Positions 995 to 14,541 of a stretch of 15,002 bases of DNA are shown here, in pieces. Both the position numbers and the translations under genes were made by a program. The notes beneath the pieces are model-generated. The model did no database searches. It was not told the origin of the DNA and saw only the letters and a list, made by a program, of their open reading frames with translations. This DNA comes from a virus (Duplodnaviria > Heunggongvirae > Uroviricota > Caudoviricetes), in the IMG/VR virus record IMGVR_UViG_2579779049_000022; one strand, 5' to 3'. Each line of letters starts with the position of its first letter. Within the stretch, counting starts at the first letter, position 1.

Positions 995-1069
995 TGGTGT
1001 CCCCTGCAGGAATCGAACCTGCAATTAGCCCTTAGGAGGGGCTCGTTATATCCATTTAACTAAGAGGAC
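995..1069 (-). tRNA. argW: tRNA-Arg (anticodon CCU)
   Basis: Reverse complement of 995-1069 is GTCCTCTTAGTTAAATGGATATAACGAGCCCCTCCTAAGGGCTAATTGCAGGTTCGATTCCTGCAGGGGACACCA: 75 nt with encoded CCA end, T-arm GGTTCGATTCC and anticodon loop CUCCUAAGG. Matches recalled E. coli argW. Confidence 0.92.
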
Positions 1070-5633: not shown

Positions 5634-5656
5634 ATCACCAGTTAGTGGCTGGTGAT
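5634..5656. promoter_or_regulatory. Palindrome ATCACCAG-N7-CTGGTGAT in the 5' region of the antirepressor-like gene (candidate operator)
   Basis: Perfect 8-bp inverted repeat read directly. It lies between a TTGACA hexamer (minus strand, 5661-5666) and the gene's RBS. Confidence 0.3.
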
Positions 5657-5959
5657 CGGGTGTCAACTAGAGCCTTCAAAGATGCTCCGGGCATATTCCC
5701 CTTGCGGGTATTGTATTACGCCTCTCCACCCGACCTTTGTACGGATGTGACTATGCCAAATTGCAGGCATAAAAAAGCCGCAAAGCTATCGGGTGCGGAT
5801 GACCGCTTTGAAGTTCTAGTGCGGTCAGTATGCGATAGCTCTGGCGGATTTGTCAAATCATGTAGGCCTTATCTTGCTGTAAGCCGCGCCATTCGGGCTT
5901 TTCCCCAGATTTGGGGGAAACTATCTGCGAAGTATTCACCTTTGACGGCAAGTTGCAGG

Positions 5960-9769: not shown

Positions 9770-10062
9770 TGAGCCACCTCCTGATAAATCACCGCATGCC
9801 CCAGTCTCTCCGCCAGTGCCAGCTCTGCCTTAGCGCCCGCTGACCGCTGCCAGCCATTCAGCATGTAAATCGCATCCACACAACGAATCATTGCCATGCA
9901 AATATCCATGTAGTGCGGCTGTGTCAGCCCGTCCGGAAGTACTGCCGGGTTTAAGACGGTATGCCCTTCCCGTTTCAGTTCCTCTTCCACCTTGTGAAAT
10001 GCCTCACGGTTGAAATTTTCATATCCCGTCATTGGACCGGCAATATAAACTCTCACCCTCAC
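9766..10062 (-). CDS. DUF4406-like protein (nucleoside 2-deoxyribosyltransferase-like fold)
   Basis: N-terminal MRVRVYIAGPMTGYENFNREAF (YIAGPM motif) recalled as the DUF4406 signature. GTG start overlaps the upstream stop (GTGA); AGGAGGTGA RBS. ATGA overlap with the downstream gene. Confidence 0.65.
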   Translation of the reverse strand: MRVRVYIAGPMTGYENFNREAFHKVEEELKREGHTVLNPAVLPDGLTQPHYMDICMAMIRCVDAIYMLNGWQRSAGAKAELALAERLGHAVIYQEVAQ

Positions 10063-10481
10063 TCCATCACCTCCTGAAAGTTTCCCCGATAGAACGCCAG
10101 CACACGCTGCATAACTTCGCTCCTCCTGCTCTCACGACAAATTATGTTCTGGTGCCTGTCGTAGCGGCGTATTTCGCCGTCTGGTAACGACCAGATAAGG
10201 TCCGGATCAACCACTGCAGGTTTCTTCAGCTTTGCCCTTGAGAGCTTTTTACGGGTATTTTGCCAGTCCTTACGCGCCTGTTCAGACGGGAATAACCCGT
10301 AACCAGAGTTGTATACATCGCCACTGGCAACCAGCTCTCTGGCCAGAACGCTCATCAGATATCTTGTTGCCCCAGTTTTAGCTTCCAGTTGTCGTAACGT
10401 CTCGCGCCCACTCTGGCGTACGAGTTCAAGAACCTGCCCTTTAATTTTTTCCCGCTCTTCTTGTGTAAAAACTTTTGCCAC
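10059..10481 (-). CDS. Hypothetical protein directly downstream of the replication gene (possible replication accessory/DNA-binding protein)
   Basis: GTG start with AGGAGGG RBS. N-terminal region LELVRQSGRETLRQLEAKTGATRYLMSVLARELVASG is wHTH-like. Function not recognised. Confidence 0.5.
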   Translation of the reverse strand: MAKVFTQEEREKIKGQVLELVRQSGRETLRQLEAKTGATRYLMSVLARELVASGDVYNSGYGLFPSEQARKDWQNTRKKLSRAKLKKPAVVDPDLIWSLPDGEIRRYDRHQNIICRESRRSEVMQRVLAFYRGNFQEVME

Positions 10482-10521: not shown

Positions 10522-11592
10522 TTACCCCCTGAAGCCCGGCGGAATTTCGTTATCCGGTTCAGAAATATGATTCACACAACGCTGGTTGTTCGTGCCGCTT
10601 ACCGGGAGCAACCAGGGGTTCTCAAAATTCCGGTCCGGTCCAAAAAACGTCGTCGCTCGCTGAACAAATTCCGTTCCCGTTTTCCCGGTAGCCGCCAAGT
10701 ATCTTGCGTAACGCCTCACGCCATCCAGCATGGCCTCTGGTGGCACCCCCTCGCGTAATCTGGCCTTCCAGGCACTGAAAGCGGATTTCTTCGGGTTTGC
10801 CCCAGCACGCAACGGGTACTCCCGCCAGACCTGTTCGAACACATCCGGATAATCCACTCGTCCCACAGACTGACCGGTGTTTTCCGGGACTACCCGATCG
10901 GCTTCCCGCTGAATGGCGGAATCGGCTTCAGGCTGCTGCAGTTGGTGTGATTGCTCCGGCCTTGCGGTCATCACCTGCTGCACAGCGCCCGAATCGGCTT
11001 TCAGCGCATACGCTGAATCGGCTTCCGGTGTCGTGCCTGCTGGCTGACCAGGATTGACGGTCTGAACATCCCCTGCCTGGTTCGTGGCGTTTTTTACGCC
11101 ATGGACCATAGTGTTTTGATCTTCTTGATCTGTATCTTTATCTGTATCTTTATCTGTCGTGACTCGTCGTGACATGTGCGTGACATTTCGTGACGCGCCG
11201 TGACAATCGCCATTTTGTTCCCGCTTTCTTTCCCTCTCTCGCTGCGCCCTCTTGCGCTCTGCAGGAGATTTTGCGGTTTGCGAAATATTGCCGTTGTCCT
11301 CTTTAAGCACCTGGCGTTTTTCCCATCCAGTGATTAAATCACCATCAAGTACCCGCCCCTGCATCGTCTGCAAAATTGAATCAATTACCTCTTCTGTCAC
11401 GTCGAGCGCACTTGCCAAATCTTCTGTCGTGACATCAATGTGACCTCGCGTGACATTTCGTGACGCGCTCACCAGGAGGTGGATATACACTGCCATCACT
11501 GTTGCAATTGGCTGCCCTGACACCCTGGCAATTGTTCGCCACTTAGGGTCATTTGGCATGTCATGCCATAATCTGAGCCAGGCGTTAGCCAT
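10522..11592 (-). CDS. Phage replication initiator / replisome-organiser-like protein with internal origin-like iterons
   Basis: Position immediately after the Cro-like and YdaT-like genes. Architecture is N-domain, low-complexity linker (DKDTDKDTD, Q/P/T-rich), C-domain (DYPDVFEQVWREYPLRAGANPKKSAFSAWKARL...TFFGPDRNFENPW). Iteron-like CGTGAC repeats and an AT-rich tandem repeat lie inside the coding sequence, as in the lambda O gene. Confidence 0.65.
   Translation of the reverse strand: MANAWLRLWHDMPNDPKWRTIARVSGQPIATVMAVYIHLLVSASRNVTRGHIDVTTEDLASALDVTEEVIDSILQTMQGRVLDGDLITGWEKRQVLKEDNGNISQTAKSPAERKRAQRERERKREQNGDCHGASRNVTHMSRRVTTDKDTDKDTDQEDQNTMVHGVKNATNQAGDVQTVNPGQPAGTTPEADSAYALKADSGAVQQVMTARPEQSHQLQQPEADSAIQREADRVVPENTGQSVGRVDYPDVFEQVWREYPLRAGANPKKSAFSAWKARLREGVPPEAMLDGVRRYARYLAATGKTGTEFVQRATTFFGPDRNFENPWLLPVSGTNNQRCVNHISEPDNEIPPGFRG
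11128..11157. repeat. 12-bp tandem repeat (TGTATCTTTATC x ~2.5), AT-rich, adjacent to iterons
   Basis: Direct reading. Encodes DKDTDKDTD in the minus-strand replication gene. Confidence 0.85.
11158..11204. repeat. Iteron-like array A: five CGTGAC hexamers at 10-11 bp spacing
   Basis: CGTGAC starts at 11158, 11168, 11179, 11189 and 11199, a helical-turn periodicity. Overlaps the 21-bp direct repeat GCGTGACATTTCGTGACGCGC (11178-11198). Confidence 0.7.
11396..11468. repeat. Iteron-like array B: inverted GTCACG (11396) then CGTGAC/TGTGAC hexamers at 11428, 11439, 11449, 11459
   Basis: Contains a second exact copy of GCGTGACATTTCGTGACGCGC (11448-11468), 270 bp from the first. Confidence 0.65.
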
Positions 11593-11663: not shown

Positions 11664-12089
11664 TCAATGTACTGCCACAGCATTTCCTGCCGGGCCACCA
11701 CGGTTCATCTGATTGAAACCGGCGATTGCCACTGCGACAAAATCATCAGCGTCTCTCACCAGTCGCTCCCGCGTCTCCACCAGCTCCCGAAAATAAGCTG
11801 AACTGTGGCTGCGCATTCTGGCCACCAGCAAAGGTGGCATTGCCTTTTCGATCGCTGGTAACAACGCCTGAATTTTTTCAACTGCATCAGGGGTGTCTTT
11901 CTCTACCCAGCGGAAAATTTTCTGGGTATTGCGAGCCAGGGCTTCCGGATGGCTGTCGTCATACAGTTCAGGAAACGTCATACCCAACTCAAAATAAGCC
12001 TGGGTTATTCCAGCTGCTGGAACTTTTTCGCCATCAGGACGCGCCCAGGCATTCATCGCCATGCGGATGTGTTCATGCTTGATTTTCAT
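11664..12089 (-). CDS. ydaT: YdaT-like prophage protein (CII-position regulator)
   Basis: N-terminal MKIKHEHI... matches recalled Rac YdaT. Sits directly downstream of the Cro-like gene with 17 bp overlap; AGGAG RBS 8 nt upstream of the ATG. Confidence 0.6.
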   Translation of the reverse strand: MKIKHEHIRMAMNAWARPDGEKVPAAGITQAYFELGMTFPELYDDSHPEALARNTQKIFRWVEKDTPDAVEKIQALLPAIEKAMPPLLVARMRSHSSAYFRELVETRERLVRDADDFVAVAIAGFNQMNRGGPAGNAVAVH

Positions 12090-12354
12090 GAATCAAGCTC
12101 CTAGTAAGTGGTTGTGTTAACGTTTTGGTATCTTCCAGCTCGGGCCAAATATTCATCCAATCAAAAGGCCTTAGTTGCTGACGTGTAACTTCACCATTAC
12201 TGGCTCGCTCAATAAGGACACATAACGATGCCCCTAACATTTGACCTTTACTCAATGCCTTTCTTAGATAACCGATGCTAGTACCACACTCACATGCAAA
12301 CATACGCTGTTCATCTGACGAAAGAGAATTGAGAAATATTCTTAATTCTTCCAT
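12073..12354 (-). CDS. ydaS: YdaS-like Cro-type HTH regulator (first gene of the rightward-equivalent early operon)
   Basis: Strong RBS AAGGAG 5 nt upstream of the ATG. Motif ...CGTSIGYLRKAL...NGEVTRQQLRP resembles the YdaS/Cro-like HTH family. Divergent from the repressor gene. Confidence 0.65.
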   Translation of the reverse strand: MEELRIFLNSLSSDEQRMFACECGTSIGYLRKALSKGQMLGASLCVLIERASNGEVTRQQLRPFDWMNIWPELEDTKTLTQPLTRSLIHENQA

Positions 12355-12453
12355 AGCTACTCCTTAGTAAACACAGCAAGAATACCCACAGGTAAACAAA
12401 AGTCAATACCCTTGGGTTGTTTACCTTGCGGTAATCGCATCTATTATTTACCT
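12355..12453. promoter_or_regulatory. Immunity-switch intergenic region: divergent promoters with operator-like inverted repeats
   Basis: 15-bp inverted repeat CCCACAGGTAAACAA (12385-12399) / TTGTTTACCTTGCGG (12417-12431), 13/15 matches. Central near-palindrome ACCCTTGGGT (12406-12415). Minus-strand promoter candidate TTGACT(12401-12406)-16 bp-TATTCT(12379-12384). TATTAT hexamer at 12442-12447, 6 bp upstream of the repressor ATG. Confidence 0.6.
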
Positions 12454-12873
12454 ATGGACAAATATGAATTTAGACGACAACAACTCATCAAAATTCGTGA
12501 TGAGAAATGCGATGGTAAAGCGGTTAACGTGGCCAGAAAGATCGGTCGCGAGCCTTCTTATGTATCAAGAATGTTGTACCCAGAGGGGAAAAAAGGAAAA
12601 AAACGGATCGCTGATGATATGGTGGAGATTATAGAAGAGTCCTTTGGGTTACCCCGGGGATGGATGGATGGTATCGTTTCATCATCAACGAACACAGCCT
12701 CCAATTATGAAACAAGGGTTCTAACGCCACGACAACGTATTTTTTTAGATCTCTTAGACGAACTGCCAGAAAGTGAAGCGGATAACTTATTAAAAACTCT
12801 TGAAGAGAAAAAACAGTATTACAATATGATCTACGAAGAAATCCGTAAAAAGAAAGCACAAAACGCATCATAA
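12454..12873 (+). CDS. Prophage repressor, DicA/RacR-like HTH protein (no S24 peptidase domain)
   Basis: HTH segment AVNVARKIGREPSYVSRML. C-terminal ...ELPESEADNLLKTLEEKK resembles recalled DicA ...ALPESEQDTQLAEM. Divergent from the Cro-like gene. ATG at 12454 preferred over upstream TTG; no SD, so possibly leaderless. Confidence 0.65.
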   Translation: MDKYEFRRQQLIKIRDEKCDGKAVNVARKIGREPSYVSRMLYPEGKKGKKRIADDMVEIIEESFGLPRGWMDGIVSSSTNTASNYETRVLTPRQRIFLDLLDELPESEADNLLKTLEEKKQYYNMIYEEIRKKKAQNAS

Positions 12874-14488: not shown

Positions 14489-14541
14489 TTTCTGGTGACG
14501 TTTGGCGGTATCAGTTTTACTCCGTGGCTGCTCTGCCGCCC
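14489..14541 (+). ncRNA. dicF: DicF small regulatory RNA (ftsZ-targeting sRNA of Qin-type prophages) with intrinsic terminator
   Basis: TTTCTGGTGACGTTTGGCGGTATCAGTTTTACTCCGTGGCTGCTCTGCCGCCC followed by TTTTT matches recalled E. coli DicF (53 nt) with about one substitution. Lies upstream of dicB as in Qin. Confidence 0.8.

Follow-up and report, generated by a model that had tools for sequence, protein, structure and literature searches.

Segment 11078 to 11464 of IMGVR_UViG_2579779049_000022, a 15,002-nucleotide stretch of DNA (the window) from a virus of the Caudoviricetes, is probably a replication origin located inside the gene of its own initiator, with the repeats of this segment as the putative binding sites of the encoded protein (rough probability 0.8). 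The initiator gene lies on the minus strand (10522 to 11592, ATG at 11592) and, according to the open reading frame list and its translation, encodes a protein of 356 amino acids. The origin reading is derived from comparative sequence analysis. It is based on the selection of the repeats at the DNA level, on their co-variation with the subfamily of the N-terminal domain of the initiator, on a recombination boundary next to the repeats, and on an anatomy and position that are the same as those of the experimentally proven oriL of the Bacillus subtilis phage SPP1. An initial annotation of the window had proposed origin-type iterons and an AT-rich unwinding tract within an initiator gene, to be read by the N-terminal domain of its product, and the comparative data lend strong support to this proposal. 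The kind of element is well known, but no description of an origin for this initiator family was found in the literature searched. A conserved second array within the coding sequence of the DNA-binding domain and the family-wide switching of the repeated hexamer go beyond the textbook description of such elements.

Anatomy of the repeat region

The repeats are arranged in two arrays of the hexamer GTCACG as read on the coding strand. Array B (11158 to 11204, minus strand) consists of five direct units at gene nucleotides 389, 399, 409, 420, and 430. On the plus strand, these units read CGTGAC at 11158, 11168, 11179, 11189, and 11199 with a spacing of 10/11/10/10 bp, and all coordinates that had initially been given for five hexamers at distances of 10-11 bp were found to be correct. 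Tandem Repeats Finder reports array B as a period-10 array at 11156 to 11205. It encodes amino acids 130-145, the start of a predicted disordered linker. Array A (11428 to 11464, minus strand) consists of four direct units at gene nucleotides 129, 139, 149, and 160 with the sequences GTCACG, GTCACG, GTCACA, and GTCACG. On the plus strand, these correspond to CGTGAC at 11428, 11449, and 11459 and to TGTGAC with one mismatch at 11439. Array A encodes amino acids 43-55 (ASRNVTRGHIDVT), which comprise the end of the helix 29-45 and the loop 46-55. A single inverted unit with GTCACG on the plus strand (11396 to 11401) is located 31 bp downstream of array A and encodes D-V-T (amino acids 64-66); it is likewise found in Pseudomonas phage 5371. 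The existence and position of a second array had been predicted and are borne out, but its distance of 270 bp has to be corrected to 260-270 bp from start to start, with a gap of about 224-229 bp. The exact 21-bp direct repeat that both arrays were said to share is present as GCGTGACATTTCGTGACGCGC at 11178 to 11198 and 11448 to 11468, and no shuffled sequence gave such a match.

The hexamer CGTGAC occurs at 14 sites in the window compared to 5.4 expected sites, a number that was reached in none of 200 shuffles. Nine of the 14 sites are located within 341 bp, where about 0.12 would be expected (Poisson estimate ~1e-14). A chance origin of this clustering is excluded by the shuffles and the Poisson estimate. 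No further GTCACG cluster was found in the window. Two other candidate signals in this region were rejected. A sigma-70-like match in array B (GTGACA...GACAAT, 9/12) is at chance level with 3 sites versus 2.2 expected, and a DnaA-box-like sequence at about 11480, ATATCCACC, contains two mismatches and has not been kept in the Pseudomonas homologue.

Array B is directly adjoined by an AT-rich tract that is purine-rich on the coding strand (11114 to 11157, minus strand) and consists of 2.9 copies of ACAGATAAAGAT followed by CAAGAAGATC. The 12-bp tandem repeat initially described next to the hexamers was recovered with Tandem Repeats Finder at 11123 to 11157 (period 12, 95% matches). Its GC content is 0.29 compared to 0.54 for the initiator gene. 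According to nearest-neighbour free energies, the 40-mer starting at 11114 is the least stable one in the gene (rank 1 of 1031) and belongs to the top 0.17% of the window with respect to low stability. On these grounds, the AT tract is presumed to be the DNA unwinding element.

The AT tract is closely followed by an imperfect palindrome (TGGTTCGTGGCGT / ACGCCATGGACCA, 11078 to 11108) that has arms of 13 bp and a 5-nt spacer and is a possible third element of the origin. In its homologue in Escherichia phage PhiR5_2, both sides of the innermost pair are altered from T-A to A-T. Inverted repeats that are short and GC-rich also recur behind the AT tract in the family and are significantly more frequent there than in control segments, with a mean best stem of 5.85 compared to 4.74 (Wilcoxon p 6e-7). 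In phage lambda, a palindrome is also located beyond the AT-rich region. As a separate observation, the palindrome scores as an intrinsic-terminator-like structure on the plus strand, antisense to the initiator gene, with 13 pairs, a 5-nt loop, and a T-rich tail provided by the AT tract. It could stop antisense transcription at the origin or be a part of the origin.

A second repeat family is located further downstream in the linker-coding part (10895 to 11025, minus strand). It comprises four copies of GAAGCCGATTC with 0-2 mismatches at 10895, 10919, 10991, and 11015, corresponding to a spacing of 24/72/24 bp. These copies are in frame and encode the peptides PEADSA, KADSG, PEADSA, and READR. 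The second pair flanks a perfect palindrome with 7-bp arms (TTCAGCG cata CGCTGAA). The same repeat family is found in PhiR5_2 despite its different N-terminal domain (locus L003, 2600 to 2713).

Selection on the DNA of the repeats

In array B, the successive units are in frames 2, 3, 1, 3, and 1 and encode CH, SR, VT, SR, and VT, respectively. As the hexamers occur in all three frames, a repeat at the peptide level cannot produce this pattern. The repeated peptides that the initial annotation had ascribed to the arrays, ASRNVT (twice) and DKDTDKDTD, are both present in the translation. Alignment of the sequences from five E. coli variants (including the window), E. albertii, and Pseudomonas phage 5371 revealed that the hexamers form invariant columns while the spacers vary. 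Through a compensating pair of +1 and -1 indels, the spacing is shifted from 10/11 to 11/10, and a different peptide is encoded in between. Furthermore, array A is longer by two units in E. albertii and some E. coli, due to a 21-bp indel.

For 21 species of the GTCACG class, whose N-terminal domains have a mean nucleotide identity of 70%, the choice between synonymous codons was compared at conserved residues. The normalized codon entropy is 0.048 at 8 codons of array A, whereas 40 further conserved codons have a value of 0.80 (Mann-Whitney p 9e-6). The codon for Ser44 is TCA in 95% of these species, and Val47 (GTC), Thr48 (ACG), Gly50 (GGT), His51 (CAC), Val54 (GTC), and Thr55 (ACG) are encoded by the same codon in 100% of them. 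The frozen codons include the rare codons TCA and ACG. Val65 is also encoded by GTG in 100% of the species, by which the inverted CGTGAC is kept intact. The comparative evidence thereby shows selection on the DNA rather than on the protein.

These data bear on the suggestion that the repeats are slippage by-products in a low-complexity linker-coding region, or are selected at the peptide level, and have no function as DNA. Such an origin would agree with the fact that array B and the AT tract encode a segment predicted to be disordered, and with a repeat length of 12 bp, which is a multiple of three. Moreover, the number of full ACAGATAAAGAT units varies from 1 to 5 among 80 near-identical viral contigs, nearly all of which have iteron counts of 4 and 5, and the exact 21-bp repeat in both arrays suggests a recent gene conversion. 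Slippage does not account, however, for hexamers with helical rather than codon spacing in all three frames, for frozen synonymous sites, or for compensating frameshifts that alter the peptides between fixed hexamers. In addition, array A encodes part of a folded domain outside the linker, and the AT tract keeps its GAT and AAA codons in GC-rich hosts. The alignment and the codon freezing largely refute this explanation, which is regarded as extremely unlikely.

Co-variation of iterons and initiator across the family

A scan with one genome per species resulted in 58 loci from Gamma-, Beta-, and Alphaproteobacteria and from a few metagenome-assembled genomes (MAGs) of Acidobacteria, and the layout was analyzed for 55 homologous genes from different species. 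In most homologues, array A is located at gene nucleotides ~129-165 and array B at ~345-490, both with a spacing of 10-11 bp. In most of them, array B is followed by an AT-rich purine tract of the type (GATAAA)n or (GATACA)n, in which 30-base segments have a GC content of 10-30% even in genes with 60-68% GC. Conservation in homologues was one of the points on which the initial annotation had wanted its proposal to be judged, and the repeats are kept in close as well as in distant homologues. In Pseudomonas phage 5371, both GTCACG arrays, the inverted unit, and an AT-rich tract are found at positions that match those in the window. Ralstonia phage Hennie, the N-terminal domain of which is 38% identical, has the same layout built from GCAACG. 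In the loci L110, L112, and L127, just two or three degenerate AACG units precede the AT tract.

The sequence of the hexamer differs between subfamilies and is either GTCACG, CGAACG/GAACGC, GTAACG, or GCAACG. When the best periodic hexamer was picked independently in the zones of array A and array B, it was the same in 38 of the 47 genes that have both; several of the remaining 9 differ only because the AT repeat outscores the iteron. No unit of the GTAACG class is located in the frame that reads TAA. This avoidance leads to an alternating 10/11 spacing and is a direct sign of a dual coding constraint. A fixed loop geometry between the arrays was also considered and rejected, as the gap ranges from 195 to 238 bp across homologues and the helical phasing is not conserved.

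Several further observations were made among the database entries of this family. Some metagenomic proteins of about 180-190 amino acids with a homologous N-terminal domain carry the HNH endonuclease Pfam domains PF01844 and PF14279 (entries P0042, P0060, P0061, P0073, P0099, P0101, and P0109), in which an HNH gene may be fused to or inserted at the origin region. Many entries for the initiator are labelled 'partial' and end near amino acids 150-220, probably due to assembly breaks at the shared repeat or at the mosaic junction described below. A search in a plasmid collection resulted in 11 matches, the majority of which are located on records that are as large as a chromosome or measure at least 150 kb. 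As no small plasmid using the module of N-terminal domain and origin was found in this collection, it provides no independent proof of autonomous replication. Two 'plasmids' of P. aeruginosa (CP137943.1 and CP124671.1; 50.9 kb, non-mobilizable) encode a homologue of the N-terminal domain with 73% identity and may be circular replicating genomes of an episomal phage that were caught in the assemblies.

Modular exchange of N-terminal domain and putative origin

The initiator has a mosaic composition. Amino acids 1-138 are 69.5% identical to a protein of the Pseudomonas phages phi1 and 5371. The initiators of PhiR5_2 and 75/02 Stx share 65% identity with amino acids 158-356 in their C-terminal half, and no match to the N-terminal part was found in these phages. 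In E. coli, N-terminal domain and origin are joined to at least three different C-terminal or partner modules. The first one is the window protein's C-terminal domain without a loader gene. The second one is found in E. coli O103:H2 PV16-126 (L144), where the gene for a 98%-identical initiator is followed by a gene for a DnaC-like ATPase. In the third one (L146 and L147), a genuine DnaT DNA-binding domain (PF17948, E 1e-17) is followed by a lambda-P-like gene (PF06992). The protein homology with the sibling L146 ends at ...TTDKDTDK, where the AT tract also ends, and the breakpoint in the DNA alignment is at the same position. Phages of Pseudomonas and Ralstonia have a large partner gene with the annotation 'replication protein P' or DnaB helicase. 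By analogy to lambdoid O and P, this pattern is as expected if the N-terminal domain and its cognate origin travel as a unit and the C-terminal domain is matched to the helicase partner.

The coincidence of the mosaic junction with the end of the AT tract would also be compatible with arrays that are bound by another phage or host factor for packaging, for recombination or module exchange, or for transcription control. In line with this, the canonical recognition helix of the N-terminal domain is acidic and does not track the iteron class. The iteron class, however, follows the N-terminal domain subfamily into different phages, hosts, and downstream partners, and modular initiators of the lambda type likewise show a junction at the origin. 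No second DNA-binding gene is consistently linked to the repeats, and the neighbouring genes differ between loci. Binding by another factor is therefore considered very unlikely.

PhiR5_2 (L003) combines a different N-terminal half, probably of the DUF1376 type as judged from its resemblance to YdaU of the Rac prophage, with the same C-terminal domain. Inside its N-terminal coding part, GGGGCTTC occurs twice at a distance of 11 bp (L003 2186 to 2214). About 250 bp later, it is followed by the inverted sequences GAAGCCCC / GAGCCCC and a (GAACAG)n tract (L003 2440 to 2500). These repeats suggest that a two-site layout recurs in an unrelated initiator family. Identity of the window element with oriJ of the Rac prophage of E. 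coli K-12 was rejected, as the N-terminal domain of Rac YdaU differs (DUF1376).

Domain structure of the initiator

Over the full length of 356 amino acids, the protein has a match to phrog_3729 'replication initiation protein' (E 5.6e-258), and the corresponding RefSeq labels are 'phage replisome organizer' or 'hypothetical protein'. Its N-terminal winged-helix domain (amino acids 1-97, encoded at 11302 to 11592, minus strand) is presumed to be the iteron-binding domain. AlphaFold2 predicts amino acids 4-97 with confidence and with winged-helix topology, followed by a basic helix 110-130. The best structural match of this domain is the N-terminal domain of DnaD, and the model thus assigns it to the DnaD-NTD-like winged-helix fold of replisome organizers. 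The most variable part of the N-terminal domain in the family is the loop 46-55, which is encoded by array A.

The coding region of the predicted disordered linker (amino acids 131-245; 10858 to 11202, minus strand) contains array B, the AT tract, the palindrome, and the GAAGCCGATTC repeats. In the full-length model, the pLDDT is below 50 over most of amino acids 146-243 and 53 for amino acids 131-140, and the linker varies in length and sequence among homologues. The C-terminal part (10525 to 10857, minus strand) consists of a helical domain (amino acids 246-330) with a pLDDT above 90 and a tail of low confidence (amino acids 333-356). The C-terminal part matches phrog_1701 'DnaD-like helicase loader'. 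The last 24 residues (10522 to 10596) resemble the C-terminal tail of E. coli DnaT (NF002770, E 7e-4) and also match the PDB entries 6aep, 2ru8, and 9zbt. From these similarities, domain and tail are presumed to form a module for the recruitment of a helicase or its loader.

Comparison with known origins

The closest anatomy is found in oriL of SPP1, which is located inside gene 38 encoding the initiator G38P. Both elements lie inside the initiator gene after the coding region of the N-terminal domain. Direct inspection of gene 38 revealed five short repeats (GAAACGACA / GAAAAAGACAC) with 11-bp spacing at gene nucleotides ~360-410, followed by 3.5 copies of the 9-bp AT-rich tandem repeat AACAATGAT. 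These repeats have the same distance from the start codon as array B and share an AACG-type core with the CGAACG subfamily. For SPP1, it has been shown that G38P binds the iterons, that the AT tract is the unwinding element, and that a 356-bp fragment is sufficient in vitro (PMC5737612, PMC6316719). The NCBI family name of the window protein is 'phage replisome organizer', and G38P is a replisome organizer as well. In contrast to the window, SPP1 has no equivalent of array A in the N-domain coding region and instead has a distant second site, oriR. Furthermore, SPP1 encodes its own loader and helicase (G39P and G40P), whereas the window encodes neither. By analogy, the element would work like the origin of the G38P family, although kinship to G38P at the level of a sequence family is not established.

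The likeness to lambda put forward in the initial annotation holds in part. In ori-lambda (lambda, 933W, P27), the gene has the same position after cro and cII as the window gene, and both elements are found mid-gene in the linker-coding part between a DNA-binding N-terminal and a partner-binding C-terminal domain. The middle of the lambda initiator gene contains the iterons and, behind them, an AT-rich tract (PMC7466680, PMC6022878). Likewise, array B and the adjoining AT tract cover amino acids 130-157 between the folded N-terminal domain and the disordered linker. In origins of the lambda type, extra iterons add residues to the protein (PMC7466680), which is similar to the 21-bp indel described above, and in-frame length changes of the AT tract are tolerated (PMC6022878), which is similar to the drift of ACAGATAAAGAT copy numbers. 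The likeness does not extend to the units themselves. Lambda has four to six 18-bp inverted repeats, each of which is bound by a dimer of O (PMC6022878), whereas the window has direct repeats of 6-7 bp at distances of 10-11 bp. The window protein is not a homologue of O (no match to Pfam Phage_rep_O). Finally, the P gene found downstream of O in lambda has no P-type counterpart in the window, and lambda lacks a second array in the coding sequence of the N-terminal domain, where array A of the window is located.

For the lactococcal P335-type phages TP901-1 and Tuc2009, the replisome organizers ORF13 and Rep2009 are described to bind direct repeats within their own genes, which constitute the origin (PMC8965321, citing Ostergaard 2001 and McGrath 1999). 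These phages infect Gram-positive hosts and are likened to the window by this published description only.

Iteron plasmids such as P1 (incC/incA) and R6K also combine direct repeats to which a winged-helix Rep protein binds as a monomer, an adjoining AT-rich unwinding element, and a second distant cluster with the same iterons. Their arrays are located outside the rep gene, on either side of it, and the second one is used for the control of copy number, which a lytic phage origin does not obviously need. With respect to general features of iteron origins, the repeats of the window are phased and direct, are conserved as DNA, switch with the subfamily of the N-terminal domain, and adjoin a region of low stability.

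The two separated arrays with the same iteron recall the control arrays incA and incC of P1, and the repeats could accordingly be initiator sites that serve regulation by autorepression or a transcription roadblock, by titration or handcuffing, or as a fork barrier, with the origin located elsewhere. In a weaker version, this would apply to array A only, and array B with the AT tract would still be the origin. Array A has no adjoining AT tract and is dispensable in the loci L121, L136, and L140. The second G38P-bound site of SPP1, oriR, has been proposed to stall forks (PMC3485210), and cloned lactococcal phage origins are described to inhibit the phage in trans by titration, known as the PER phenotype (PMC8965321). 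A purely regulatory site, however, has no need for an AT-rich tandem repeat that is conserved in GC-rich hosts. The DNA that directly follows array B is always the least stable in the gene, the anatomy of array B is the same as that of the proven oriL of SPP1, and the 15-kb window has no other GTCACG cluster. Taken together, the regulatory explanation is judged to be quite unlikely.

Evidence against an origin function

Several findings weigh against the origin reading. In the Pfam scan of the 356-amino-acid protein, only a sub-threshold match to HTH_Crp_2 was obtained, and TIGR01714 (phage_rep_org_N) aligns to amino acids 5-125 with an E-value of 0.016 and 15.4 bits compared to a cut-off of 49.8. 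An hhalign comparison of the N-domain profile with G38P resulted in a probability of 0.1. The canonical recognition helix (amino acids 67-77) is acidic and does not discriminate between iteron classes, and in DnaD itself, the N-terminal winged helix has an oligomerizing rather than a DNA-binding role. The window has no gene for a helicase loader, so that the prophage might be defective for replication. In addition, no literature describing origin, binding, or unwinding for this family was found. Full-text searches for GTCACG together with 'iteron', or for GATAAAGATAAAGAT, revealed nothing relevant, and the papers in which Stx-phage replication regions of the non-lambda kind are classified (Eru) make no mention of origins or iterons.

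Exceptions are also found within the family. L121, L136, and L140, which have CGAACG arrays, contain array B but no array A, and this makes the role of array A in the origin uncertain. In L130 and L138, the repeat is a different one (ACTACG) and an AT tract is missing, and in the distant homologues L131 and L132, no recognizable array or AT tract was found. The exceptions without array A indicate that array B and the AT tract are the common core, to which array A is a frequent but dispensable addition. In L130 (a Serratia MAG) and L138 (Pantoea sp.), repeats of the type ACTACGTA replace iterons and AT tract at gene nucleotides ~320-470. The proteins of these two loci contain an extra segment (…ISRNPWARCKDLK…), which looks like a different origin design or an inserted domain.

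Proposed initiation mechanism and role of array A

If segment 11078 to 11464 is an origin, initiation could proceed as follows. The initiator gene would be transcribed and translated after derepression of the prophage. The N-terminal winged-helix domain would then bind the GTCACG units head-to-tail; as the units are one helical turn apart, they are all located on one face of the DNA. Array A, which is located ~230 bp upstream with its four direct units and the inverted unit, would act as an auxiliary cluster that probably reinforces array B. The nucleoprotein complex at array B would strain and open the adjoining AT tract, for which the low stability is in agreement. Finally, the C-terminal domain, attached by the disordered linker of ~115 amino acids, would bring in the replicative helicase. 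Host DnaB-DnaC is presumed to provide this function, because the DnaC-like gene at the locus of the 98%-identical initiator is absent from the window.

Any particular role of array A can be proposed with much less confidence than the origin itself. An additional reading, which is considered unlikely, is that array A also encodes a specificity loop of the initiator (amino acids 43-56, between the helices 29-45 and 56-63). It is suggested by N-terminal domains of different iteron classes, which outside this loop reach identities of up to 84%. Of the alignment columns with the best separation between the GTCACG and CGAACG classes, nearly all are encoded by iterons (amino acids 45-56 and 65-66), and the acidic canonical recognition helix does not separate the classes. 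On the other hand, the loops also differ in L121, L136, and L140, which have CGAACG arrays without array A, and a class-specific indel in the basic helix region (amino acids 98-125) is an equally good candidate. Moreover, a part of the correlation is inevitable, as it is the iterons from which the loop is translated. If array A did encode such a loop, one stretch of DNA would be both the target and the code for its reader, and gene conversion between the arrays would change the iteron and the specificity loop of the initiator together.

Genomic setting

The window corresponds to the region for immunity and replication of a lambdoid prophage of E. coli, in reverse orientation compared to the usual lambda map. 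It encodes a cI-like repressor (12412 to 12873, plus strand), a cro/YdaS-like gene (12073 to 12354, minus strand), and a cII/YdaT-like gene (11664 to 12089, minus strand). The initiator gene follows these genes and thereby occupies the position of lambda O. It is directly followed by a Ren-like/DUF977 gene (10059 to 10481) instead of a helicase-loader gene or a P gene, neither of which was found in the 15-kb window. The prophage may thus depend on DnaC of its host or have a replication defect. A 1.3-kb segment with the initiator gene is 97-99% identical in seven sequenced Escherichia phages. Of 5426 complete E. coli genomes, 2209 contain a match to a 541-nt piece comprising N-terminal domain and repeats, among them genomes of O157:H7 and O103 strains.

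No RNA family was found by Rfam in the repeat region. The matches above the gathering threshold in the window are located elsewhere and comprise the antisense sRNA DicF (14490 to 14541, plus strand, 75 bits), sRNA-Xcc1 (5646 to 5735, minus strand, 65 bits), and a tRNA (998 to 1069, minus strand). The presence of DicF suggests a Qin/dicB-type module across the immunity region from the initiator.

Implications

The current understanding of how such origins work is unchanged by these findings. A placed origin provides a target for studying prophage induction and incompatibility or exclusion among prophages that share iterons, as well as for phage-derived vectors. With its four hexamer classes, the family represents a natural set of variants in which changes of iteron sequence and copy number go along with changes of the coding sequence that overlaps them, and it is therefore convenient for studying the evolution of initiator-origin specificity under dual coding constraints.

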